From positions 1-64,000 of the IMG/VR virus record IMGVR_UViG_3300023242_000003: a stretch of DNA of 64,000 nt, one strand, 5' to 3'. A program made the position numbers and the translations under genes. The notes below the pieces were generated by a model, which was not told where the DNA came from, made no database searches, and saw only the letters and a program-made list of their open reading frames with translations. Positions within the stretch are counted from its first letter, which is position 1; the number at the start of each line of letters is the position of its first letter. Below, piece by piece: positions 3,893-15,000 of the stretch. The stretch is from a virus.

Positions 3893-6847
3893 TTGATAAA
3901 TTTAGACGATATACGAGGGCGTTCAGCCATTTCATTGCTTGAGACATATGAAGGGATAAATCCATACATCAAAAAACTAAAAATAGCTTTTTTGAAAAAT
4001 AATAAATTAGCTTTAACTGAAAACCAATCAAAGTACATTACTGAAAACCATGAAAGAGAACCTCTTTTCATTAATAGGATTGTTGGTATAACTCCTTATC
4101 TAGGTGAAGAACTAAAAAAAATGGATGAGTTATCGTTCACACCAGAAAAAGTTTTAATTGAATTTATTCTTGCTGATACAGATAAAACATTTCATATATA
4201 CGGCAAACTAAAACAAAACCAAAAAGAGTCTAAAATGTATTGGTTACCTAAAACACAGCTAACTGATGACCCATATTTTGAACCTAGTAATATAGAAGTA
4301 GATTTTAACCTATATAACGAAGTTTTATCAGAATATGGAAAGAAACTATATCAACACCAAGAAGAAGGTGTTAAATTCCTTCTTTCCAGAAACGGTTGTA
4401 TTTTAGCTGATGATATGGGGTTGGGGAAAGCTTGGTTATCGAGTACTTACATATACACCCCTAAAAATAAGGTTAAAATAGGTACACTTAAAGTAGGTGA
4501 CAAGGTAATTGGTTCTGATGGAAACCCATGTAATGTTACTGGTGTTTTCCCACAAGGGGTTAAAGATTTATATCGTATTACGTTTAATGATGGTTATAGT
4601 GGTTTAGTTTGTAAAGAACATTTATGGACTGTATCGTCAAATAATTCTGGTAATAATTCAAAAAATAGAGAAAATAGGTACATTACACTAAGTACCGAAC
4701 AAATGCTCAATAAAGAATTGGTTATTGAACAAAAAGGGACGGGTTGGAATGAAAAAAGACCATATAAATTAAAGACATATTATAAACATAGTAATGGTCA
4801 AAATAAGTGGCAAATTCCAATTGTCAAACCAATAGAATTTTATAATAATATTGAATTACCGATTGAACCTTATTTATTAGGACTTGGTTTAGGGGATGGT
4901 TATTTTGATAATAGAAATAATATTAAAATAGAATTACACCAAAATGATTTTGAAGAAATATTTAAAAAACTAAATATTAATGAATACGCTGCAACAAATA
5001 ATAATCTAACAGCCTACATTAAATTAAATCATGAATTAATAGATTTAGGTTTAAACAATAAAAAATCAGATACTAAATTTATCCCTAACATCTATAAATA
5101 TTCATCAATTAATGATAGAATAGCTATACTACAAGGTCTCATGGATACTGATGGTCATTGTATTAAATCTAATGCTGGTGTATTTACTGGTACCGAGTAC
5201 TGTAGTGTATCGGAACAACTAACTGATGATGTAGCTGAAATTGTTCATAGTTTAGGTGGTATTGTTAGAAAATCATCTAAGGTTGGTTCTTACAAAAAAG
5301 AGGATGGAACTAGGGTAATATGTAAACGTGCTTTTAGGTTAAATATCAAGATGCCAGAAGGTATTAACCCATTTAGACTTAAAAGAAAAGCTAATTCTTA
5401 TAACTCGCCAAAAAAATATCCAGTTGGTCGATATATTTCTAATATTGAATTAGAAACAAAAGGTGATGCGGTATGTATTTCTGTAGATACTCCAGATAAG
5501 TTATATGTTGTCGAACATGGAATTGTTACACACAATACAACACAATCGATTGTAGCGGCACTAGAAAGTGGTGCTAAAAAAATATTAGTCGTTTGCCCGT
5601 CATCAACAAAAATTAACTGGGAGCGTGAAATTAATGTTTTTTGTGATGACACAACAATTATCGATGGTAAAAAATGGAGTGATGCTAAATTCACTATAAT
5701 TAATTTTGATATTCTTAAAAATTTCCATACTTTATCTTCTGGTAAAAAACCAAAAGAAGGTGAACCAGAAGAAATTTTAAATAGAGAATTGGTAAACGCT
5801 AATTATGATTTATGTATCATTGATGAGGCTCATTATTTAAAAAATAATGAAAGTATTAGAGGTAAAATAATGGTGGAACTTTGTGCTAAGGAAAAAATAG
5901 AGAAGGTTTGGTTGTTAACTGGTACACCCGTCGCAAATAGACCTATGGATTTCTTTAATCTTTTAAAGATTATTAAATCTCCTATCGCAGATAATTGGAA
6001 ACATTATGCTGTAAGGTATTGTGATGCTAGAAAGTTCTTTAGAACGCTTAAGAATGGTCAAAAAAAACAAATATGGCTTACTGATGGTGCTAGTAATTTA
6101 GAAGAACTAGCTAATAAAACCAAAAATACTATTATTAGACGTTTAAAAACTGAAGTGTTAGATATGCCAGATAAAGTAGTGACACCTATGCACCATATGT
6201 TAGATAAAAAAGGTGTTAAACAATATGAATTACTTTGGGAAGAATACTTACAAAAAAGGAAATTAGAGGGTAAGAAAACAGATAATCTACAAAAAGATTT
6301 GGTTGAACTTATTCTACTTAGACAATTTATTGCGCAAGAAGCTATTCCTTATACTATTGAAATGATAGAAAACGCTATTGAAATGGGTCGTAAAGTGATA
6401 GTATTTACTAGTTTTACTGATGAATTAGAAATGATATCTAATCACTTTGGTAAATTGGCGGTTAAACACAACGGCCTAATGACAACATTACAAAAACAAA
6501 AATCAGTTGATTCGTTTCAAAACAACGACAAGGTAAAAGTTTTTGTTGGTAATATAAAATCTGCTGGTGTTGGTATCACACTTACTGAAGCAACTGTGGT
6601 TATTTTTAACTCATTTGATTGGGTTACTGGTAATAACGAACAAGCTGAAGATAGAGCGTATAGAATTGGACAAAAGAATGATGTTAATGTTTATTATCAA
6701 TTATTTGACGACACTATATCAATAAGGATGTGGGAAACTTTAAAACAAAAACAAGAAATAATTAACATAATATTAGGTGTTGAAAATATAACCAAAGAAA
6801 ATGAAACAGATTTATTAACCCAAAAAATATTGAATGGTGATTTATAA
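3893..6847 (+). CDS. SNF2/HARP-like SF2 helicase containing an intein
   Basis: LADDMGLGK-[intein]-TTQS Walker A, IIDEAH Walker B, LTGTP, SAGVGITL and QAEDRAYRIGQ motif VI. Confidence 0.92.
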   Translation: MINLDDIRGRSAISLLETYEGINPYIKKLKIAFLKNNKLALTENQSKYITENHEREPLFINRIVGITPYLGEELKKMDELSFTPEKVLIEFILADTDKTFHIYGKLKQNQKESKMYWLPKTQLTDDPYFEPSNIEVDFNLYNEVLSEYGKKLYQHQEEGVKFLLSRNGCILADDMGLGKAWLSSTYIYTPKNKVKIGTLKVGDKVIGSDGNPCNVTGVFPQGVKDLYRITFNDGYSGLVCKEHLWTVSSNNSGNNSKNRENRYITLSTEQMLNKELVIEQKGTGWNEKRPYKLKTYYKHSNGQNKWQIPIVKPIEFYNNIELPIEPYLLGLGLGDGYFDNRNNIKIELHQNDFEEIFKKLNINEYAATNNNLTAYIKLNHELIDLGLNNKKSDTKFIPNIYKYSSINDRIAILQGLMDTDGHCIKSNAGVFTGTEYCSVSEQLTDDVAEIVHSLGGIVRKSSKVGSYKKEDGTRVICKRAFRLNIKMPEGINPFRLKRKANSYNSPKKYPVGRYISNIELETKGDAVCISVDTPDKLYVVEHGIVTHNTTQSIVAALESGAKKILVVCPSSTKINWEREINVFCDDTTIIDGKKWSDAKFTIINFDILKNFHTLSSGKKPKEGEPEEILNRELVNANYDLCIIDEAHYLKNNESIRGKIMVELCAKEKIEKVWLLTGTPVANRPMDFFNLLKIIKSPIADNWKHYAVRYCDARKFFRTLKNGQKKQIWLTDGASNLEELANKTKNTIIRRLKTEVLDMPDKVVTPMHHMLDKKGVKQYELLWEEYLQKRKLEGKKTDNLQKDLVELILLRQFIAQEAIPYTIEMIENAIEMGRKVIVFTSFTDELEMISNHFGKLAVKHNGLMTTLQKQKSVDSFQNNDKVKVFVGNIKSAGVGITLTEATVVIFNSFDWVTGNNEQAEDRAYRIGQKNDVNVYYQLFDDTISIRMWETLKQKQEIINIILGVENITKENETDLLTQKILNGDL
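4430..5536 (+). mobile_element. Class 3 intein with LAGLIDADG endonuclease in helicase Walker A
   Basis: Starts with Ala (AWLSS), HLW block B, VCISV block F, ends VTHN/T; LLGLGLGDG and LQGLMDTDG motifs. Confidence 0.88.
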
Positions 6848-6895
6848 TTTTTTTCTTCTAACTTTACTCCTATTCAAATTACCTTCATAATGAAC
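6842..6895 (-). pseudogene. Detached 3' end of the HNH gene (VHYEGNLNRSKVRRKKL*)
   Basis: Joins in frame to ...TTRIING of ORF 8333-8827 across the TGTT direct repeat; its stop overlaps the helicase stop in TTATAA (6842-6847). Confidence 0.8.
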
Positions 6896-6936
6896 AGTTA
6901 CTAATTTCATATAAAAATATATAAATTTAGTTTTTT

Positions 6937-8103
6937 TTAGTTAGAGAAACTGTAAATTCCTCTATTATAAATATTAATACTTGCATTATAATCAGCATCT
7001 ATTTCATATTTACAACTTGTACATTTGAAGTTCTCGCCTTGGCGAGACTTCTTATCTACATGACCGCAACTAGAACATGTTTGTGAGGTATATGCTGGTG
7101 AAACCTTCACCAACATAATACCGTTATCCTCACATATCCTATTTATTTTATCAATGGTCTTGACATAAGACCATCTTTGTATTTTATTTGTAAAATATTT
7201 CTTACCAGTTTTAACTGATACTAAATCTTCTATTATTATATTATTAACATCTTCGATGTTAATTAAATTACATAACCTATTTATTTCATTATCTCTATGA
7301 TTTAAACTTCGTTTAAATCCATTACTACCTTGTTTACATCTACTTATTTTAGAATATATATCACTTAAATCACCATTAATAACTTGATTATCAGATGTAA
7401 CAATTAATTTTTTATACCCCATATCAATTCCAATGGCTTTGCCATTGGTTTTAATATCTATCTCTTTTTCCCAAATAAGGCTAATATAATAATTATTTTT
7501 TACCTTCTTAATTTGTATATTATTTCTTAATTTAAACGTATTATGTTTAAATGATAATGAATGTTTATGGTGATTAAATGGTATATTTATTTGTAGGGCA
7601 CGAGTGCCCTTTTCATTAAAATAAGGTAATTTAAGATTAATAAAGTTATCAAAATGGGAACCATTTTGTATATTAAAAAATTCATTTGTTAGATTAATAC
7701 TAACATTATTTAGATTAGGTTTAGTGAAATATTTAGTTTTTAATATATTATTTAATGATAGGTCAGAGAATTTAGTTTTACAGAATGAAGAATCAGGATG
7801 ATTCTTCATCATATATGTGTATGTTTTTTTATATGATGAATATCTTTTCTTTTTACTTTTATCTAATTGACTTCTTATAATTTCTGATGCTTGTTTATAT
7901 ATTTCTCTTTTATATTTAGAATGTTTTATTACTTCTGTAGGAAGTAATTTAGATGATAAATTAGGTTTAAGGGGTAATACACCCTCTATTATATAGTTTA
8001 TATATATTTCTAAATCATGTTTATAATCAATAAATACTTGGTCAAGGGAAGCAAGCTTCCCTTGATTAGCATTTGATATAATATGTTTAGATGTTCTAAT
8101 CAT
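6937..8103 (-). CDS. tnpB: TnpB RNA-guided endonuclease (IS200/IS605/IS607 superfamily)
   Basis: RuvC-I GIDMG, RuvC-II IIEDL, YTSQTCSSCG...CTSC zinc finger, RuvC-III DADYNAS; catalytic D/E/D intact. Confidence 0.92.
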   Translation of the reverse strand: MIRTSKHIISNANQGKLASLDQVFIDYKHDLEIYINYIIEGVLPLKPNLSSKLLPTEVIKHSKYKREIYKQASEIIRSQLDKSKKKRYSSYKKTYTYMMKNHPDSSFCKTKFSDLSLNNILKTKYFTKPNLNNVSINLTNEFFNIQNGSHFDNFINLKLPYFNEKGTRALQINIPFNHHKHSLSFKHNTFKLRNNIQIKKVKNNYYISLIWEKEIDIKTNGKAIGIDMGYKKLIVTSDNQVINGDLSDIYSKISRCKQGSNGFKRSLNHRDNEINRLCNLINIEDVNNIIIEDLVSVKTGKKYFTNKIQRWSYVKTIDKINRICEDNGIMLVKVSPAYTSQTCSSCGHVDKKSRQGENFKCTSCKYEIDADYNASINIYNRGIYSFSN

Positions 8104-8252
8104 TATTTATTTTCTAATTCTTTTAGAATCAGTTTAGTAATTAATTTAGACATACCAATATTGTTTTCCAAACAATATTGTTGCAATTCAGTTTTAGTAG
8201 AATCTGTGATTCTTATAAAAACTCTATTTGTTTTATTTATTTTTGTTCGCAC
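8103..8252 (-). CDS. Small ribbon-helix-helix protein, 49 aa (not in ORF track)
   Basis: GTG start; (M)RTKINKTNRVFIRITDSTKTELQQYCLENNIGMSKLITKLILKELENK*; stop overlaps tnpB ATG (TAATG). Confidence 0.75.
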   Translation of the reverse strand: MRTKINKTNRVFIRITDSTKTELQQYCLENNIGMSKLITKLILKELENK

Positions 8253-8332
8253 ATTAATAAATATATAGATAAAATGAAAAAGATAAAAAAATATATTTTA
8301 TTTTAAAAATAAGTTTTATCTGAATGATAATA

Positions 8333-8827
8333 TTATATATTTTTATATGTTTTATTAACTACGTTAATAACACCGTTAATAATCCTAGTTGTACCCCACA
8401 TTGGTCTAAGGTTAGATAATGCATTTACAATACTAGGGTGTTCAGTCGTTTCAAAACTACCGACTGGTTTTATGTGGTCAACGTGCCATTCACCATGGTT
8501 TCTCCATGTCATACCCTCAGTAAATAATGCTGTAATATGTTCTTTAAACTCCAAAGCGGAATAACCTAATAAATCTATAGTGTGACCTTCTTTTTTGGTG
8601 TTTAATCTCCATAAAGACATTTTAAGAACACTTCTCCATAAACCAACGTGTTTATTTTTTAACCTATATTCTTGTCTTTTATTTTGGTTTATTTTATTAT
8701 ATTCTTTTTTGTAAATATTTTTACATTCTTTACATTGACAATGATAACCATCTTTACCTAAATTATTAACGTGAAATTCAGCGATTGATTTTTCAAGATT
8801 ACATTTAGTACAAATTTTAGTCTTCAT
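8333..8827 (-). pseudogene. HNH homing endonuclease truncated by the TnpB element
   Basis: N-terminal CxxC...CxxC finger, WHVDHIKP and NLRPMW; last ~11 codons derive from the inserted element; true C-terminus at 6842-6895. Confidence 0.8.
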
Positions 8828-9272
8828 TTACAATTACTGTAAAATCAATATTATATGGTGTTCTATCTTCTAAATAAAATAAAACAGAGCCATAAACCAT
8901 TTTATTATCTTTATTCGTTTTTATTTCTGACACTATAGTTTCAAAACTTAAATTTTCTTTTAATGTTTTTTCTAAAACTGTTTTAAGTGTGTGATTAAAT
9001 TCAAACAGTTCATTTGTTAAAACTTTATTTAAAACCATTTTAGTTAACAATATCTTAATTGATTTTTCTTGTGATAAAAAAATACCATCTGTGATAAAAT
9101 TAATATCATCATTTATAAATTTAATTATTTTATCACTCATTGATAAAGATTCAATTTTACATTTATTTTTAAACTTATTTTTGAGTTCAGAATTTATCCT
9201 AATTTTTATTTCAGTTTCTTTCATTTTATTAAATTTTATCATATTTATTATTTGTGGTAACATTGTACCCAT
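8817..9272 (-). CDS. RHH-domain protein with C-terminal extension (likely start at 9224)
   Basis: MKETEIKIRINSELKNKFKNKCKIESLSMSDKIIKFI is RHH-like; overlaps the HNH start. Confidence 0.7.
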   Translation of the reverse strand: MGTMLPQIINMIKFNKMKETEIKIRINSELKNKFKNKCKIESLSMSDKIIKFINDDINFITDGIFLSQEKSIKILLTKMVLNKVLTNELFEFNHTLKTVLEKTLKENLSFETIVSEIKTNKDNKMVYGSVLFYLEDRTPYNIDFTVIVNED

Positions 9273-9339
9273 ATTAATAAATATACTAATATTTTAAAAA
9301 AGATATAAATATTTACTTTTTATTTAAAATATTTATAAT

Positions 9340-9552
9340 GGGAATAATGAACAAGCAGAAGATAGAGCATTCCGTATTGGTCAAAAAAATGATGTCAATG
9401 TTTACTATCAATTATTTGACGATACTATTTCGAGTAGAATGTGGTCTATGTTAAATAGTAAAAAAGACATCATCAATATAATTATGGGTGATAAAAAATT
9501 AACAGAAGATGAAATAACTGCCTTATTGGTAGATGACTTAATAACAATGTAA
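9340..9552 (+). pseudogene. Orphaned original 3' end of the helicase (70 codons, no start at its 5' end)
   Basis: GNNEQAEDRAFRIGQKNDVNVYYQLFDDTISSRMWSML...; 30/31 aa identical to 6629-6721; stop sits 1 nt before the glutaredoxin ATG. Confidence 0.88.
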
Positions 9553-9553
9553 T

Positions 9554-9808
9554 ATGATAACAATTTATAGTTTCCCAGAATGCCCTTATTGCAAGGAATT
9601 AAAAAAGATTTATGATTCACAAGGCATTAAATATCGTGACGTAAACATAAACTTAGAAGAAAATATTAAAGAATGGGATGAAATTTCTGAAGCATCAAAA
9701 GCTGAAGAAGTCCCAGTGATAAAAATAGATAAACAATTATTGGTACCTAATGTTTCCTTCCAATCAATTAGTGAAGCTGTTGAGATAACTAAGAAGTTTT
9801 TAAGTTAA
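9554..9808 (+). CDS. Glutaredoxin/NrdH-like redoxin
   Basis: CPYC active site and VPVI motif, 84 aa. Confidence 0.88.
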   Translation: MITIYSFPECPYCKELKKIYDSQGIKYRDVNINLEENIKEWDEISEASKAEEVPVIKIDKQLLVPNVSFQSISEAVEITKKFLS

Positions 9809-9847
9809 ATTAAAACTTATTGATATTTATAATAAAACAAATTTATT

Positions 9848-9892
9848 ATGTCAATAACTATAGACGAAAAAGAAAAACTATTCCTTAGATAA
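9848..9892 (+). pseudogene. Orphaned original 5' stub of the neck-protein gene
   Basis: MSITIDEKEKLF(LR*) parallels MAISNDERDKLFR at 10908; both are preceded by TGATATTTATAnTAAAA. Confidence 0.75.
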
Positions 9893-10658
9893 CATGATTA
9901 AGATATTTAAGGATGTTTTTTCTATATGGAATAATTATTAATTTAATATTATTATCGTTACAATAATTTTCTTTTATTTTATCTCTACTTTTTAATTTAT
10001 TAAAAACCGTTTCACCACCAAACCATTTTATTGGTTTATAATGTTGTTCCCCATGAAATTCGATACATGTGTTATAATCTGGTAAATAAAAATCGAATGG
10101 TAATTTATTAATATTTTTACAATCATTAAATTTATATTGTGGTGAAAAGTTAATTTTTTTAGATTCTAATATATTTCTAATTTCTTTTTCACCTTTTGAT
10201 TCACGACAATTCGGACAACCTTTACCTCTTAAATGTTCATACGGTAATTGTTCGAAATTTCCATGTATAGGACAAATTATATTAATTTTAGTCTTTGAAT
10301 TAATATAATTAACTAATTTATAAATATAAAAATTATAATGTTTTATTATAAATTTATTTATTAATTCATCGTTAGTGATTAATTTAATTTTTAATTTATT
10401 AGTTCTTGCTTTAATACTTTTTATACTTCTATTTAATACTTTAACACAACCATGTATGCCAATTTTACTATAATTCTCAATTAAGAAAATATCATCATTC
10501 TTAACCCATTTTTCTTCCAGAATCAACCCTAATTTAAATGCTTTCATATAAATAGATTTAGTTGTTTTACCTAATTTTTTTACACAATAATCACTACAAT
10601 TAACAGAATAATTATTTTTTAAAAAATCTATTTCATTAGTACTCCACCTATTTGCCAT
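9885..10658 (-). CDS. Free-standing endonuclease (Vsr/DUF559-like PD-(D/E)xK with Zn-finger and helical repeats)
   Basis: Two W...FL..NYS repeats, ICPIHG...HLRGKGCPNC, SKGEKEI and PFDFYLP...IEFHGEQHY. Confidence 0.8.
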   Translation of the reverse strand: MANRWSTNEIDFLKNNYSVNCSDYCVKKLGKTTKSIYMKAFKLGLILEEKWVKNDDIFLIENYSKIGIHGCVKVLNRSIKSIKARTNKLKIKLITNDELINKFIIKHYNFYIYKLVNYINSKTKINIICPIHGNFEQLPYEHLRGKGCPNCRESKGEKEIRNILESKKINFSPQYKFNDCKNINKLPFDFYLPDYNTCIEFHGEQHYKPIKWFGGETVFNKLKSRDKIKENYCNDNNIKLIIIPYRKNILKYLNHVI

Positions 10659-10808
10659 TTATAATAATTTTTTTTTTAAATCCATTTCTATTAATAATTT
10701 TATTCGTTTTGATAGTGAATAACCGTTTTTATTACAGTATTCATTGTATTCTTCTTTTATTTTTTTATTTATCCTAATATTTAAATAATCGTTGTTTTGT
10801 GTTGACAT
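10659..10808 (-). CDS. Small ribbon-helix-helix protein, 49 aa (not in ORF track)
   Basis: MSTQNNDYLNIRINKKIKEEYNEYCNKNGYSLSKRIKLLIEMDLKKKLL*; stop abuts the endonuclease ATG. Confidence 0.78.
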   Translation of the reverse strand: MSTQNNDYLNIRINKKIKEEYNEYCNKNGYSLSKRIKLLIEMDLKKKLL

Positions 10809-10817
10809 GTCATTACA
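10798..10817. promoter_or_regulatory. Tandem TGT-N4-ACA boxes (putative RHH operator)
   Basis: TGTGTTGACA and TGTCATTACA span the RHH start; equivalent boxes at 8244-8253, 9253-9262 and 9264-9273. Confidence 0.55.
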
Positions 10818-10907
10818 TTTTTAATATAAATATATGAGTTATGTTAAAAAAAATAAATATTATTGTTTTATTTTATCTGTCAATGATATTTATAGTAAAA
10901 AGGAACT

Positions 10908-12062
10908 ATGGCTATAAGTAATGATGAACGTGATAAGTTATTTCGTCAATTCAGACATTCATTGGGCGCACCAGTGCGTCAAATTGAATTGGAAGATGAG
11001 CAACTTTGTACCCTATTAGAAATTTCAATAGAGGACTATGCTCAATATGTCCAAGAATGGTTAGTTGAACATCAATGGCAATCTTTATTAGGTCAAAATT
11101 TAGACACAACAGATATGGCATTTGCTTTGAGTGTTAGAAACTTTAACTTTATGACCCAATATACTTATGCTTATTCTAAACAAGTTGGTTTACAGTCTAA
11201 TGGTCCGTGGGAGTTAAAAAAAGACTATGTCGAAGTTGAAGCTGGAAGACAAGTTTATGTTATCCCAGCTGGTCGTGAAATTAACGAAGTGCTTTGGATT
11301 ACTCCACCTCCCACGAATAGAGCTTTATTAGCTAATTTTGGTGGTATTGACGCTGGTTTTGGTGGTGGTTTTGGACAAATGGGTGGTGGTGTAGGTACAA
11401 TGGGTGCTGGTGGTGGAAATATGGGTTATTATATTGCACCAGCTTTTGATATATTGCTAACTGCTGCCGATATGAATTTAAAAAATCGTATTGTTAGAAG
11501 TGAATTAGCGCATAAAATAACAGCTGGACCAAACGGAACCAAACTACTTCATTTAATGAGTACTCCTGGTTCAAAATTATCTTTTGGTGGTTCAGCTGGC
11601 GGTTTAGGTACTGGGGTTGGTGGTGCAATGAACATGGCTGGTTGTCAAGTTTGGTATCACTATTACGACACTACACCAGAGAATTTAGGTAAATGTCTTG
11701 ACGACAATCCAGATATTATTAAAATGCCAAATCAAGTACCATTAGCTAGGCTAGATTACGCTGAATTTAACGAACCAACAAAAACACTTATTCGTCAGCT
11801 ATTTATTGCGGAAGCTAAAAGAGCTTTAGGCAGAACTAGAGGTAAGTTTGGTGGGATTGTTGGGCCGCCAGAAGCGGAAAGAACTATGGATTATGAAACA
11901 CTTATCTCAGAAGGTAATGACGAGAAAAAAGCTGTGTTAGAAAGATTGGAAGCTAGACTACTTAGACTTTCATCCACATCGCAATTAGAAAGAGGTGCTA
12001 AAGAAGCAACAGACTTAAATACTTCGATGAAATACAGACCATTAGGGTTTTGGGTTTATTAA
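10908..12062 (+). CDS. Neck protein (gp13-like)
   Basis: LGAPV..IEL.DEQL N-terminus, LGR.RGKF..I..P and terminal PLGF; typical of T4-like gp13 family. Confidence 0.75.
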   Translation: MAISNDERDKLFRQFRHSLGAPVRQIELEDEQLCTLLEISIEDYAQYVQEWLVEHQWQSLLGQNLDTTDMAFALSVRNFNFMTQYTYAYSKQVGLQSNGPWELKKDYVEVEAGRQVYVIPAGREINEVLWITPPPTNRALLANFGGIDAGFGGGFGQMGGGVGTMGAGGGNMGYYIAPAFDILLTAADMNLKNRIVRSELAHKITAGPNGTKLLHLMSTPGSKLSFGGSAGGLGTGVGGAMNMAGCQVWYHYYDTTPENLGKCLDDNPDIIKMPNQVPLARLDYAEFNEPTKTLIRQLFIAEAKRALGRTRGKFGGIVGPPEAERTMDYETLISEGNDEKKAVLERLEARLLRLSSTSQLERGAKEATDLNTSMKYRPLGFWVY

Positions 12063-12065
12063 AAT

Positions 12066-12090
12066 AAAAAGGGGCGTAAGCCCCTTTATT
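12066..12090. terminator. Bidirectional terminator between convergent genes
   Basis: AAAAAGGGGC-GTAA-GCCCCTTT. Confidence 0.75.
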
Positions 12091-12094
12091 ATTT

Positions 12095-15000
12095 CTAAAA
12101 ACCCCAATCATCTTCTAGCTTTTCTTTTTTAACCTCTACCACTGGTATAGGTGGTTGTAGTTGCTGTAATTCAGATTTATCATCTATTTCGTTTATACTA
12201 GCTAGTTCTTGGTTATCAACATAGTACAGTGTGTCATCAACTACATAACCTTCTGGTACTTCACCATATGTGTCATCAAATTCATCATCTAATTTTAAAT
12301 CTTCATCGTTTCTAACTAAATTACCGTCTTCATCTTCTTCAATTTCATCGTCTTCATCTTCAATCATAACACGCTTTTTTATAACCTCTACTGTCTGTTC
12401 AATAACTACGTTGGACGAATTTTCTTTTACCTTATTAAGTATAAAAACCATGTTTTTATGGTCAACAATGGTTTCGAATTCAGAACCTATTGTTTCTCCA
12501 GTCATTACTTTACACTCGGCTAAATAATCTAACCATTCTTCATATCGATTATCGTTATTTTCTTTACCAACTATTTTGTAGTAGTTATCCCGTTCTACTG
12601 CTTGCTTTTCATACTTAAATATATCATTAAAATAACACAATGGTTCATTCCATTTTCTAGAAATAAGTGAAAACGAATCATCATCTGAAATATCGCATAA
12701 AACTAATATATCTATAGGTAACACACCTTGCATTGATTTTTCTAAATCTTTAAGTTCCAAATGTTTAATTATATCTTCTATCGTTTCTTTTTCAAGAATT
12801 AAACCTTCTATTTTAGCGATACGCATACGTTCGTAGTAATCAACTCTAAGTTCTTCCCATTCAGTTTCTTCCATGTTATTTGGCAACTTATTAACCTTAT
12901 CCCAAAACTTTATTTCTTTATCTTCCATTCGCATTAGGTCTTGGTAAGAATCTTGGTCAGCTTCCTTAAAAGGTATACCAGAAACCAACTCACATTCATT
13001 TCTAGTGAATATTTGTCTTTCCTTTAACTTTTCAGTTATTTTTTTAGTTTCTTTATCTTTTATCTTAACAATATCTAATAGAATATTATCACGTATTTCT
13101 GGGGTAAAACAAACTAATAATGGTTTAACTTTTTTATTAAATGCATCTAAGTAACGAGCAACATTGTACTCATCAGTGAATAATTGGGAATCAATACTTT
13201 CCATTCTAAGTTTTAGTGTTTCAATGTCCTCATCATCTTCTTCCAAAGCAGCAACTGCTTTTTTCAACATTTCGAGTTCTTTAATCAGTTCAAAATCACG
13301 CTCAACAATCTCTGGGTCTATTAATTTACTGTTTAATTGAACCTCTTTCCTAACAACTGGTAATGACATATCTGGATTTTCCAATTTCCAAGCATCAGCT
13401 TGTTTCTTAGTCATTTTATTAATCTCAACTGTTTTTAAGTCACCTTGTGATTTAGTAGTACCAATATTTATGTAATATAAAACATCACCTAAAGTAATAT
13501 TTAAAGCTTCTCTCATGGCCAATTCCATGTGTGCTTGTTTAGGTAATGGGTTACCAGCTTTATTTTTCATCGTAGCTTTTTTCTTGTAATCAGTCATTGA
13601 TAACTTAACTTTAGCTTTAGAAGCTATTTTAACCAAAGGTATTTGGTAATTATAAATTCTATCGACATATTCATAATAATAATTAATGAATGAATGACCA
13701 TCACCGTCTAACAACATACGAATAGATTTACCCAAGAAATCTTCTATGTAAACAGACATTCTTTTAGATTTTACCGAGTTACCTACTAGTTTAATCTTTC
13801 CACCAATATCGTTAGCGTAGTTTTTACGAGCAAAATTAATTGTAGAATTACAAATATCGTCAATATCTAACCCCATACGACCTTCCATATAATTTTCGTT
13901 AAACTCAGCCAACACAGCATCTAGCCCAGATAATTCTTTTCCAGCATCCTCCGTTGTTTTCCAATGGCTACCCTTGGCTATATATTTTATGTCATTAACG
14001 TTGTCTGGAAATGAAAAGTTAAATCCATCGGTATCACCAACTAGTGCACGAAACCCATGTGTTTCAGTAAAGTGTCGAACCATCAAACGTAAATACTGAC
14101 GACCACGACATGTTGTTTCTTCTGCTGAATCAGTATCACCCCAATTAAAAATATAAGGTGCACCGTATGAACCAAACCATGAGTTGGCAAGAATTTTAAG
14201 CGGTAATTGTTTTTTATCGTACAAGTTAGCTAAAGCTTTATGTTCTTGTATTTCTTTTTTAAGTGTTTCTTTTTCTTTGTCTAATAAAGTTTTTTCCTCT
14301 TTAAGTTTTGTTTCTAAATTTTTGTAGATTTTCTTTTCTTTACCGTTTAAGAATTTAAACTTATCACGTGTATCAACCACATAAGTTAACATCCCCTCCA
14401 TCACACCACTAATATCTAATTCTGGGAAAATGTTGTGTGTAAGTTGTGTTTTAGGGTAAAGTGCTGCGTAATCTAGCTTTACCACATTTCTAGCGTATCC
14501 TACTTCTAATAGACGAGAAAGACCACCAGTAAAATCTCTTTTAGTTTGTGTTTCTGGAATAGCTAAACCGTTTTCATAAGACCATGCAGCCATAATAAGT
14601 TTCCATTGACCAGCAGTACCCATTGTTGATGAACGTTGGAATGTTGTTGGTAACATCTTTGCGATAAGAAAACTGGCTTGGTTGAATATATTATCTATTT
14701 GTTCAGTCTCCCAAAGGTCATCACACAAGTATCGTTGTACGATAAATTGACCAGTAGTTTTGATATAATTCTTTTTTAATGGGTTCTTGTCTGTAATTTT
14801 AAACCAATCACCATTTTCATTGTTAAAAGCGTAACTGTTTGCCTTATCAGCCCAAGTTGAATTAATTTTATCACCAGCAACATAAACACGATTAGCTTTA
14901 GCTATCTCAGAATATTGCGTGATGTACTTTAAACCCCATGATTTAATTTCAGTATTAATTGCCATCGCTCTACGTACAGCATGTGAAATATCAATAATGT

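Follow-up and report, generated by a model that had tools for sequence, protein, structure and literature searches.

A probable hotspot of free-standing homing endonuclease genes in the genome of a large uncultured phage, with two gene-end-capturing cassettes and an IS607-family TnpB element

Introduction

Free-standing homing elements of phage T4 either occupy intergenic positions or divide a gene so that it encodes two proteins; I-TevI itself represses its own promoter. To our knowledge, no T4 free-standing element carries a replacement terminus, and none has a ribbon-helix-helix (RHH) partner. The Seg and Mob proteins are free-standing homing endonucleases of T4-like phages that act by intronless homing (reviewed in PMC2988022). 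In fungal mitochondria, mobile endonuclease ORFs (mORFs) combine an inserted foreign C-terminus with a native remnant, as in Glomus atp6, atp9, cox2 and nad3 (PMC3630166); a gene-end-replacing endonuclease ORF in Allomyces macrogynus atp6 is cited in the same paper. In Arc-containing IS605-family transposons, an RHH/Arc micro-protein encoded just upstream of tnpB binds and represses the element promoter, and Arc genes adjoining homing endonuclease genes have also been noted (bioRxiv 10.64898/2026.09.24.754181).

Here we analysed positions 1–64,000 of IMG/VR record IMGVR_UViG_3300023242_000003, a metagenome assembly of an uncultured large phage (99.6 kb; CheckV completeness 28%). We refer to this whole 64,000-nucleotide stretch as the window and focus on positions 6629–10943. 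These 4.3 kb hold three minus-strand units, each comprising a TATATTTAT promoter-like motif, one or more TGT-N4-ACA boxes, a small gene for an Arc-like RHH protein and a nuclease gene that abuts it. A preliminary description had reported this common layout, which gene calls and motif searches confirmed almost in full, and had named the nucleases as HNH, Vsr/PD-(D/E)xK-like and TnpB, identities borne out by Pfam and PHROG profiles, motifs and structure matches. Its interpretation, a single system of RHH-regulated, gene-end-replacing cassettes, is partly supported. We regard the region as a likely hotspot of free-standing homing endonuclease genes, made up of two gene-end-capturing cassettes and one IS607-family TnpB element.

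Results

The HNH cassette and the helicase gene

The helicase gene and the HNH cassette comprise the following features.

3893–6847, plus strand: SNF2-family helicase gene, in use (Pfam SNF2-rel_dom, Helicase_C)
4430–5536, plus strand: LAGLIDADG intein of the helicase, 369 aa, in the P-loop region (Pfam LAGLIDADG_3, Hom_end_hint)
6629–6847, plus strand: cassette-borne ('A-type') helicase 3′ end, 72 codons and a stop, nearest to the attached ends of other cassettes
6842–6895, minus strand: orphaned native HNH 3′ tail, 17 codons and a stop, colinear with the tail of the intact HNH genes of L064, L066 and L111
8333–8827, minus strand: HNH/EndoVII-like endonuclease, 164 aa (PHROG)
8817–9224, minus strand: p151, an N-terminal RHH domain with a further C-terminal domain of ~85 aa (longest ORF start, 9272)
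9242–9341, minus strand: HNH-cassette control region, with TATATTTAT at 9277–9285 and a TGT-N4-ACA box at 9253–9262 (motif search and relatives)
9342–9552, plus strand: native helicase 3′ end as a remnant, 69–70 codons in open frame, matching the local backbone
9554–9808, plus strand: glutaredoxin gene, a conserved neighbour (Pfam Glutaredoxin, E 3e-12)

The helicase 3′ end is duplicated (6625–6816 versus 9336–9527, 74% identity over 192 nt), and the A-type end is only 66% identical to its own remnant. It is closest to the attached ends of other cassette-bearing contigs (80–85% nucleotide identity), while the remnant shares 85% with the ends in use in L006 and L012, whose helicase backbones are also the nearest. 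At the junction the remnant lacks its own start codon; a plus-strand promoter-like ATATTTATAAT at the right edge of the control region points at the remnant and the glutaredoxin gene.

The preliminary description had proposed comparing empty with occupied alleles, and empty helicase alleles do exist in related contigs: in most of 80 related loci, the helicase, glutaredoxin and neck genes are tightly packed, ~40 bp apart. The HNH cassette with its remnant was found in 13 contigs, this record counted among them, and in the five sequence types read across the right junction, that junction is identical within 3 nt. Attached ends have other attached ends as nearest matches (80–92% nucleotide identity), and remnants match the in-use ends of those empty alleles that are nearest in the helicase body. 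This pattern supports the view that cassette-borne ends track the cassette across different backbones and remnants track the local backbone. RHH–HNH cassettes also occur without any duplication (L034/35, L123 and L129), those of L034/35 and L123 being intergenic and without a remnant. In eight relatives, an intein lies 8 codons from the cassette junction: the same target, a different element.

Left of the junction, all nine scorable cassette alleles encode W-V-T, compared with 17 empty alleles, the other 44 encoding W-V-P; for the window, for L059 and for L066, the nearest empty relatives all have P. We counted this linkage as support for putative co-conversion on that side. Immunity through recoding, as earlier proposed, was weakly seen at the helicase. 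The Pro-to-Thr codon, 7–9 nt left of the junction, is the single cassette-linked difference and, being present in those 17 empty alleles, is not exclusive to occupied ones; over the 20 nt to its right, empty and occupied alleles do not differ, which leaves the linked codon as the one candidate basis of immunity.

The nuclease matched PHROG 'endonuclease VII' (E 2.8e-21) and also PHROG 'HNH endonuclease', with no match to an HNH family in Pfam, and its homologues have invariant W-H-V-D-H-I and N-A-L-x-N-L motifs. In the window its last 12 residues are encoded by the end of the inserted IS element and the conserved Y-x-G-N-L-N tail is missing. The insertion has probably crippled the gene, and this copy may no longer home because the conserved C-terminal motif is lost. 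The stop codons of the orphaned tail and the helicase overlap. The upstream p151 gene overlaps the HNH gene by 11 nt; conservation in relatives makes Met at 9224 its most likely start, although the 8817–9272 minus-strand ORF is longer. At least three different C-terminal domains are attached to one RHH domain among p151 relatives. The AlphaFold model of p151 was of too poor quality for use. The control region has one TGT-N4-ACA box in the window and two in tandem in relatives.

The TnpB unit

Inside the HNH 3′ end lies a further element.

6893–8372, minus strand: IS607-family element with RHH1 and TnpB, inserted in the HNH 3′ end (core 6897–8368)
6898–7110, minus strand: candidate omega-RNA scaffold, from the 3′ part of tnpB through the element right end (predicted fold)
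6937–8103, minus strand: TnpB, 388 aa (Pfam, PHROG, alignment to solved chains)
8103–8252, minus strand: RHH1, an Arc-like ribbon-helix-helix protein, 49 aa, GTG start (Pfam, PHROG)
8244–8265, minus strand: promoter-like TATATTTAT and a TGT-N4-ACA box over the RHH1 start (motif search)

The element is flanked by TGTT (8369–8372 and 6893–6896), and its RHH1 and TnpB genes overlap by 1 nt. TnpB matched Pfam Cas12f1-like_TNB (E 5.5e-20) and, aligned to solved TnpB/Cas12f chains, conserves the RuvC Glu and Asp and the zinc ribbon. The same element, 94–96% identical and with identical ends, is found at other sites in L106–L110, and L111 has the empty site in its HNH gene. The sister copy in L106 encodes a Resolvase-domain serine-recombinase TnpA where the window has RHH1; by this comparison, the unit is an IS607-family element with an RHH gene in place of the transposase gene. 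The 6898–7110 segment, with a predicted fold of −54.8 kcal/mol (z = −5.9 versus shuffles) and no match to an Rfam family, may be an omega-RNA scaffold with the flank at 6875–6892 as putative guide.

The preliminary description had treated TnpB as a cassette of the same family. It shares the RHH gene and operator layout, but it is not a free unit beside the HNH gene: it is an IS607-family element with a serine-recombinase sister, replaces no host gene end and instead damages the HNH gene. The arrangement is one of a selfish element nested in a selfish element.

The Vsr-like cassette and the neck-like gene

The second duplication surrounds the Vsr-like nuclease gene.

9820–9884, plus strand: native neck-gene promoter and first 12 codons, a remnant colinear with the glutaredoxin-to-neck region and gene start of empty alleles
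9885–10658, minus strand: Vsr/EDxHD-like homing endonuclease, 257 aa (PHROG, AlphaFold fold match)
10659–10808, minus strand: RHH3, Arc-like, 49 aa (PHROG)
10798–10834, minus strand: a pair of adjoining TGT-N4-ACA boxes over the RHH3 start; TATATTTAT lies upstream (motif search)
10880–10944, plus strand: cassette-borne neck-gene promoter and first 12 codons, now in use (sequence comparison)
10908–12062, plus strand: neck-like/head-tail adaptor-like gene, 384 aa (weak PHROG match, head-tail adaptor Ad2, E 7e-7)

The neck-like gene is conserved at 72–89% in 174 viral contigs, and its duplication (old copy 9820–9884, new copy 10880–10944) was found only in this record. The frame of the remnant enters the end of the Vsr-like gene and stops after 14 codons; the cassette-borne codons resemble those of lineages such as L038, which have a Vsr-like gene just upstream of the neck gene. 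RHH3 and the nuclease gene abut with zero gap. The nuclease combines a PD-(D/E)xK core with one CapR/DUF723 zinc module and a helical repeat region at its N-terminus, and matched PHROG 'homing endonuclease' (E 2e-34). The best PDB matches of its AlphaFold model were Vsr (1cw0, 1vsr) and the I-Bth0305I catalytic domain (3r3p), with probabilities of 0.98–0.99 but weak E-values (0.02–0.06). A third gene-end case was found in L011, L027, L059 and L066, where an RHH-less CapR–Vsr cassette replaces the glutaredoxin 3′ end.

Two cassettes had earlier been described as lying antisense in conserved genes with a replacement terminus, and both the helicase and the neck duplications were confirmed. Sequence comparison supports reading the HNH and Vsr-like units as mobile nuclease cassettes whose host genes would be kept whole by a diverged copy of the displaced terminus.

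RHH proteins and putative operators

The three small proteins appear to be RHH proteins on weak scores (E about 1e-3 to 1e-4). All three matched PHROG 'Arc-like repressor' (E about 2e-4), RHH1 scored 21.4 bits against Pfam RepB-RCR_reg (cut-off 21), and a profile built from eight family members matched solved DinJ and SvtR (E about 1e-3). RHH1 and RHH3 are 40% identical over 37 aa. In the 64 kb, TATTTAT-N(1–12)-TGT-N4-ACA was found four times versus 0.3 expected, all four sites being at the three RHH gene starts. TATATTTAT is enriched in the window (16 versus 6.2 expected), and TGT-N4-ACA alone is not (26 versus 27.6). Across divergent cassettes, the operator position is conserved and the N4 spacer variable. 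These motifs support a common promoter and putative operator layout for the three RHH genes. By analogy with Arc in IS605 elements, the RHH proteins most likely repress their own promoters via TGT-N4-ACA operators. In other phages, most of the Vsr-like and HNH relatives lack an RHH gene.

Discussion

We propose that one cassette (Arc-like RHH protein and HNH) entered the helicase gene at the DNA for SNF2 motif VI and another (RHH protein and Vsr/EDxHD-like nuclease) entered the neck-like gene after codon 12. Each would have brought its former host's terminus, the helicase 3′ end or the neck promoter and 5′ end, so that the interrupted gene is complete without splicing, with the recipient's own terminus remaining beside the cassette as a remnant. 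Such composites most probably began with a nuclease gene that was intergenic, as today in L034, L123 and L038, and that, in a co-infection, cleaved the adjacent gene of a naive phage. Repair would then have copied the donor gene end together with the nuclease gene and, on the far side, have been resolved at the break rather than in diverged homology. The resulting composite would have homology on both sides of the cut and could therefore home like an intron. We place the putative cut sites at the cassette junctions. The RHH-bearing TnpB element landed in the HNH gene.

The preliminary description saw one coherent new family, in which RHH regulator, interchangeable nuclease and replacement terminus form a single evolved, splicing-free counterpart of introns and inteins. 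The layout common to three cassettes within 4.3 kb, the gene ends replaced by two of them, the RHH1–RHH3 similarity and the widespread RHH–HNH composite all speak for it. We nevertheless judge it unlikely: RHH genes and end replacement each occur without the other in relatives and so do not form one system; the TnpB unit derives from IS607 and has a sister copy with a transposase; and the RHH–Vsr form with the neck-gene duplication was found once only.

Still less probable, in our view, is that the RHH–nuclease pairs are mainly toxin–antitoxin-like modules or anti-phage weapons that spread by addiction or rival exclusion and not by homing, the RHH protein, and above all p151 with its additional C-terminal domain, binding and restraining the nuclease and repressing the operon. 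A small RHH gene preceding an overlapping nuclease gene is indeed the order of type II toxin–antitoxin operons, the best solved match of the RHH profile is the antitoxin DinJ, and the varied C-terminal domains of p151 relatives would fit. However, RHH1 and RHH3 are bare 49-aa domains with no space for a toxin-binding tail, and the allele pattern fits homing: the site is constant, the flanks are linked to the cassette, and the same motif is also the position of an intein. That the duplications are assembly chimeras of co-occurring strains, or products of random illegitimate recombination independent of the nucleases, seems highly improbable, even for a window from a metagenome assembly in which the neck-gene duplication is a single observation. 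The copies, 66–74% identical, are too diverged to mislead an assembler, the helicase composite recurs across the 13 contigs, with a near-identical junction in the five sequence types read, and duplication and cassette boundaries coincide in each case.

The preliminary description knew of no earlier account of this combination as a family. Gene-end-carrying homing nucleases have long been known in fungal mitochondria, and we found no description of them in phages in the literature searched, within which phage gene-end replacement is thus apparently undescribed; gene-end capture and Arc genes next to TnpB or homing endonuclease genes are each already known separately (PMC3630166; bioRxiv 10.64898/2026.09.24.754181).

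As in mORFs (PMC3630166), an endonuclease gene travels with a diverged host 3′ end that replaces the native end in frame, and the native end stays downstream as a remnant that matches close relatives, the inserted end being foreign. The present cassettes, in contrast, occur in a phage and encode HNH and Vsr/EDxHD-like nucleases rather than LAGLIDADG or GIY-YIG enzymes; their nuclease genes run antisense, each with a promoter of its own and an RHH gene, whereas the mORF is fused in frame; and one cassette replaces a promoter and 5′ end, of which PMC3630166 has no case. With T4 Seg and Mob genes (PMC2988022), the cassettes share their own promoters, positions adjoining conserved genes, presence/absence polymorphism and co-conversion of flanking markers. 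The TnpB unit resembles Arc-containing IS605 elements (bioRxiv 10.64898/2026.09.24.754181) in having an RHH/Arc-type gene just upstream of tnpB, but is of IS607 type, with a serine recombinase in its sister copy; its RHH gene replaces tnpA, which Arc accompanies in IS605 elements; and it resides in a phage, inside another selfish gene, with repression here putative. The Vsr-like nuclease shares the fold of its catalytic domain with I-Bth0305I (PDB 3r3p), which is intron-encoded, and N-terminal CapR/DUF723 zinc DNA-binding modules, repeated in relatives, with the CapR-repeat homing endonucleases of ICP1, which have T5orf172 nuclease domains (PMC10448857); unlike the window cassette, neither comes with a gene terminus or RHH partner. 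Finally, the same conserved helicase codons are also targeted by inteins with homing endonuclease domains, which likewise keep the host gene functional; but where an intein restores the protein by splicing, the cassette would restore the gene by supplying a new end.

Organization of the region

The 99.6-kb IMG/VR virus record whose first 64 kb form the window is rated 28% complete by CheckV, so the window covers only part of the genome of a large phage. Neither the region (6629-10943) nor its neck-like protein had a DNA or protein match in the GenBank phage collection; relatives of the neck-like protein, 72-89% identical, were found in 174 IMG/VR contigs. Loci from related viral contigs (L-numbers) were compared with the window. 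No Rfam family matched within 6000-12200. The genes are arranged in the following order.

Gene order in the region (coordinates in the window)
3893-6847 (intein at 4430-5536, cassette-borne 3' end from 6629), plus strand; SNF2 helicase with a P-loop intein
6937-8103, minus strand; TnpB
8103-8252, minus strand; RHH1
8333-8827, minus strand; HNH nuclease
8817-9224, minus strand; p151, an RHH-type protein
9342-9552, plus strand; helicase 3' fragment (the remnant)
Plus strand; glutaredoxin
9885-10658, minus strand; Vsr-like nuclease
10659-10808, minus strand; RHH3
10908-12062, plus strand; neck-like gene
Minus strand; family B DNA polymerase

The 369-aa intein carries LAGLIDADG and Hint signatures and directly follows the G-L-G-K of the helicase P-loop; its presence varies among relatives, as seen from a gap of ~1 kb between N- and C-terminal helicase matches.

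The three nucleases named in the preliminary description (HNH, Vsr-like and TnpB) were confirmed by profiles, motifs and fold. PHROG matches and conserved motifs place the HNH/EndoVII-like enzyme in a homing endonuclease family, as do a PHROG match and a Vsr/I-Bth0305I-like fold for the Vsr-like enzyme, whose fold comes closest in the PDB to those of Vsr and the homing endonuclease I-Bth0305I (weak E-values, high probabilities). A PDB sequence search returned no match for either protein. TnpB contains a RuvC-like nuclease, with its RuvC residues kept, and a zinc ribbon.

An HNH cassette carrying a helicase 3' end

The helicase 3' end is present twice, at 6625-6816 and 9336-9527, with 74% identity between the copies, in agreement with the earlier proposal that the cassette supplies a recoded end to the gene that it occupies. 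Comparing empty with occupied helicase alleles in related contigs, as had been suggested, we found both, and the HNH cassettes have a junction in common. Of the 80 related loci, most are empty alleles in which the helicase, glutaredoxin and neck genes are tightly packed (glutaredoxin-neck spacing ~40 bp). In 13 contigs, including this record, an HNH gene and a p151-type RHH gene lie antisense, with an attached helicase end on one side and a remnant on the other. Among the five sequence types whose junctions were read, the right junction is identical within 3 nt and maps to the codons for Asn-Asn-Glu-Gln in SNF2 motif VI.

The attached helicase ends are nearest to one another (80-92% at the nucleotide level) regardless of backbone. 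For each remnant, by comparison, the closest sequence is the in-use end of empty alleles whose helicase bodies are also the closest, which pairs the window with L006/L012, L059 with L041-43/L054 and L066 with L062/63/70. The codon 7-9 nt left of the junction encodes Thr in all 9 scorable cassette alleles and Pro in the nearest empty relatives of the window, L059 and L066, the count over all empty alleles being 44 Pro and 17 Thr. The attached end and the Thr codon are thus linked to the cassette across different backbones, as expected of co-conversion, and at least a short leftward stretch was therefore converted together with it. Sliding-window comparison resolved no left tract longer than about 30-100 nt, given the high conservation of the motif VI region.

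In L034/35 and L123, the cassette lies between helicase and glutaredoxin with no remnant, and the helicase ends in the cassette-linked type. The empty lineages L049, L055-58 and L078/81 also have this type of end. Together, these loci make a source lineage and an intergenic starting state for the cassette plausible.

It had also been proposed that recoding makes the occupied allele immune to cleavage. The linked Pro/Thr codon speaks weakly for this, but the 20 nt right of the junction are alike in both alleles, leaving the CCN/ACN codon as the sole linked sequence hint of immunity at the helicase site.

Eight relatives carry an intein in SNF2 motif VI, 8 codons from the HNH cassette junction, and thus two kinds of selfish element target one conserved stretch of DNA. 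This intein (L008:6452-7500; also L009, L027, L032, L061, L070 and L085) is ~350-370 aa long, follows Q-A-E-D-R and has Cys at +1. Among the relatives, it was never seen together with the HNH cassette. Separately, L029 (6468-7013) and L030 have an HNH gene 45% identical to that of the window, in forward orientation between helicase and glutaredoxin, with no RHH gene and no duplication.

Cassettes at the neck-like and glutaredoxin genes

The second gene end described as recoded, the promoter and 5' end of the neck-like gene, was recovered in the window only. Here, the native intergenic promoter and 12 neck codons are kept after the glutaredoxin stop, colinear with empty alleles, and run directly into the stop of the Vsr-like gene. 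A second promoter and 12 recoded codons lie beyond RHH3, joined to the rest of the neck gene. The in-use start resembles that of lineages including L038, in which the neck gene is immediately preceded by a Vsr-like gene. Across the 80 related loci, the 5' coding duplication was found in the window alone, with promoter-motif matches alone elsewhere, and only the window has the RHH+Vsr cassette at this site. A related RHH gene is present at the same edge of the neck gene in L077, with no duplication.

In L077 (6454-7924), another TnpB, of 390 aa and with 28% identity to that of the window, has cut the RHH+nuclease cassette by the neck gene, leaving the RHH gene and a 43-aa nuclease N-terminal piece. 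In L044 and L046 (8001-9611), the match to the neck-like gene is ~470 nt longer than elsewhere, with a different apparent start, and the gene may contain another insertion.

A Vsr-like nuclease with three or four repeated CapR/DUF723 modules and no RHH gene occupies the glutaredoxin 3' end in L011 (2860-4081), L027, L059/60/64 and L066/68/69. Glutaredoxin in these relatives ends in a cassette-linked tail common to different backbones, and its native last codons are found just before the neck promoter. Elsewhere in the window's own genome (G000:C1:77525-77623), a 33-aa piece 52% identical to the C terminus of the Vsr-like nuclease is probably the remnant of another such gene.

An IS607-family element in the HNH gene

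The TnpB unit had been counted as a third cassette. Its RHH-TnpB layout stands, but the unit is an IS607-family derivative inserted in the 3' end of the HNH gene. In L064, L066 and L111, this gene ends in a conserved Y-x-G-N-L-N tail, with a stop codon overlapping that of the helicase; in the window, the tail is orphaned at 6842-6895 and the HNH gene ends in 12 unrelated residues. The insert has a core at 6897-8368 with TGTT on both sides. The same insert, 94-96% identical and with identical ends, is present at other sites in four other contigs, one of which holds two copies; the element has defined ends common to copies at different sites, and L111 has an empty site.

In a sister copy, L106 (TnpB 96% identical), the position of RHH1 is taken by a Resolvase-domain TnpA. 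The element therefore belongs to the IS607 family, and the window copy, in which RHH1 stands in the place of the serine-recombinase TnpA, is a non-autonomous derivative without transposase. The 3' part of the element has a stable predicted fold (z = -5.9 against shuffled sequence) without an Rfam match, in copies too alike for covariation; a fold at the right end is as expected for an omega-RNA, for which it is a candidate.

Two copies of the element, one with the serine-recombinase TnpA and the other with an RHH gene, share one contig (L106:1858-3717 and L108:2231-3714). At L107:1983-2501, an RlpA-like ORF immediately precedes the RHH-TnpB module, which starts exactly at its promoter motif; the ORF has no in-frame stop across the promoter and continues into the RHH gene.

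A shared promoter-like motif, candidate operator and RHH gene

The single layout ascribed to the three minus-strand units was evident in each, which opens with TATATTTAT, followed by boxes, an RHH gene and a nuclease gene, the two genes abutting or overlapping. The motif is enriched in the 64-kb window (16 found versus 6.2 expected). In all three units and in relatives, one TGT-N4-ACA box or two come next, at the RHH start codon or shortly ahead of it; this position makes them candidate RHH operators. TGT-N4-ACA alone is not enriched within the window; the combined pattern occurs 4 times in 64 kb versus 0.3 expected, exclusively at the three RHH-unit gene starts.

Similarity of the proteins to RHH families is weak in score but consistent. 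All three match a PHROG annotated 'Arc-like' (E ~2e-4), RHH1 alone reaches Pfam RepB-RCR_reg (21.4 bits, cut-off 21), and a profile of eight family members matches DinJ and SvtR in the PDB (E ~1e-3). RHH1 and RHH3 are 40% identical over 37 aa. The AlphaFold model of p151 has a mean pLDDT of 44, and its protein-atlas matches are all sub-threshold, one being an RHH cluster. The RHH proteins probably repress their own promoters, as Arc has been demonstrated to do in IS605-family elements (bioRxiv 10.64898/2026.09.24.754181). Arc genes adjoining homing endonuclease genes were noted in the same work. Relatives of p151 combine one RHH domain with three different C-terminal domains, which leaves room for an antitoxin-like role, with HNH as the candidate toxin.

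In L123 (1225-2582), a 285-aa protein upstream of HNH takes the place of p151 and combines a terminase large-subunit ATPase-like domain (Pfam Terminase_6N, E 1.7e-7) with a C-terminal RHH_1.

Separable parts and a proposed route to gene-end capture

The preliminary description had joined RHH, nuclease and gene-end replacement into one new system, which the related loci do not bear out. All three parts do coincide in the window and in the HNH cassettes with a remnant. RHH genes are confined to an HNH clade (≥66% identity), to L129 at another locus and to the window's units; other HNH and Vsr-like relatives have none. No gene-end duplication flanks the RHH+HNH cassettes of L129 and L123, and the glutaredoxin 3' end cassettes show duplication without RHH. 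As each occurs without the other, these are separable parts. An assembly chimera was rejected for the helicase: the copies, 66-74% identical, have diverged too far to confuse an assembler, the arrangement recurs in 13 contigs, with a common junction in the five sequence types read, and the duplication ends where the nuclease cassette does.

At the level of allele comparison, three points are established: presence and absence at one site, cassette-linked flanks and backbone-native remnants. We propose that the nuclease cleaves empty alleles close to the junction. In forming the first composite, repair would have copied the donor gene end together with the nuclease gene, resolving at the break on the far side. 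The remnant would then supply homology right of the cut, so that the composite could home like an intron, and the carried end would terminate (or start) the gene. A plus-strand promoter-like motif at the right edge of the cassette, facing the remnant and the glutaredoxin gene, may restore glutaredoxin expression.

From these sequence patterns, there is good support at the helicase for a gene-end-capturing homing cassette; the case at the neck gene comes from a single record. A broader reading, which we regard as speculative and rather unlikely, is that a portable Arc-type promoter-operator-RHH module was recombined onto at least three unrelated nucleases (HNH, Vsr/EDxHD and TnpB) in a large-phage lineage. 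Gene-terminus capture would then be a recurrent mode of entry, favoured by selection, that opens the best-conserved cores of essential genes to such cassettes with no need of an intron or intein, the remnant serving as homology arm and the outward promoter restoring downstream expression.

Relation to known elements

A homing endonuclease with a spare gene end would constitute, besides introns and inteins, a third route into the conserved core of a phage gene. Gene-end capture, seen three times in three adjacent genes, has support at the population level from many metagenomes. It would account for mosaic gene ends and for orphaned pieces of genes in phage genomes, and annotators should take duplicated termini of this kind as real. 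From the junctions, target sites can be predicted for the HNH and Vsr-like enzymes, which are new candidate site-specific nucleases. If the RHH proteins act as proposed, the control of selfish nucleases by Arc-type regulators, described recently for bacterial IS605 elements, would also reach phage homing endonucleases and an IS607 derivative.

We found no description of phage homing endonucleases with duplicated gene ends in the open-access literature searched. In fungal mitochondria, endonuclease ORFs (mORFs) bring a foreign gene C terminus and leave the native one as a remnant, as in Allomyces atp6 and Glomus atp6, atp9, cox2 and nad3 (PMC3630166). Replacement of a promoter and 5' end is a feature of the phage window that is absent from that study. 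Phage cassettes and mORFs alike insert a complete, in-frame terminus and leave the native one beside it as a remnant. The two also share a phylogenetic signature, a native-like remnant beside a foreign inserted end, which was found for the helicase and, by inspection only, for the neck gene.
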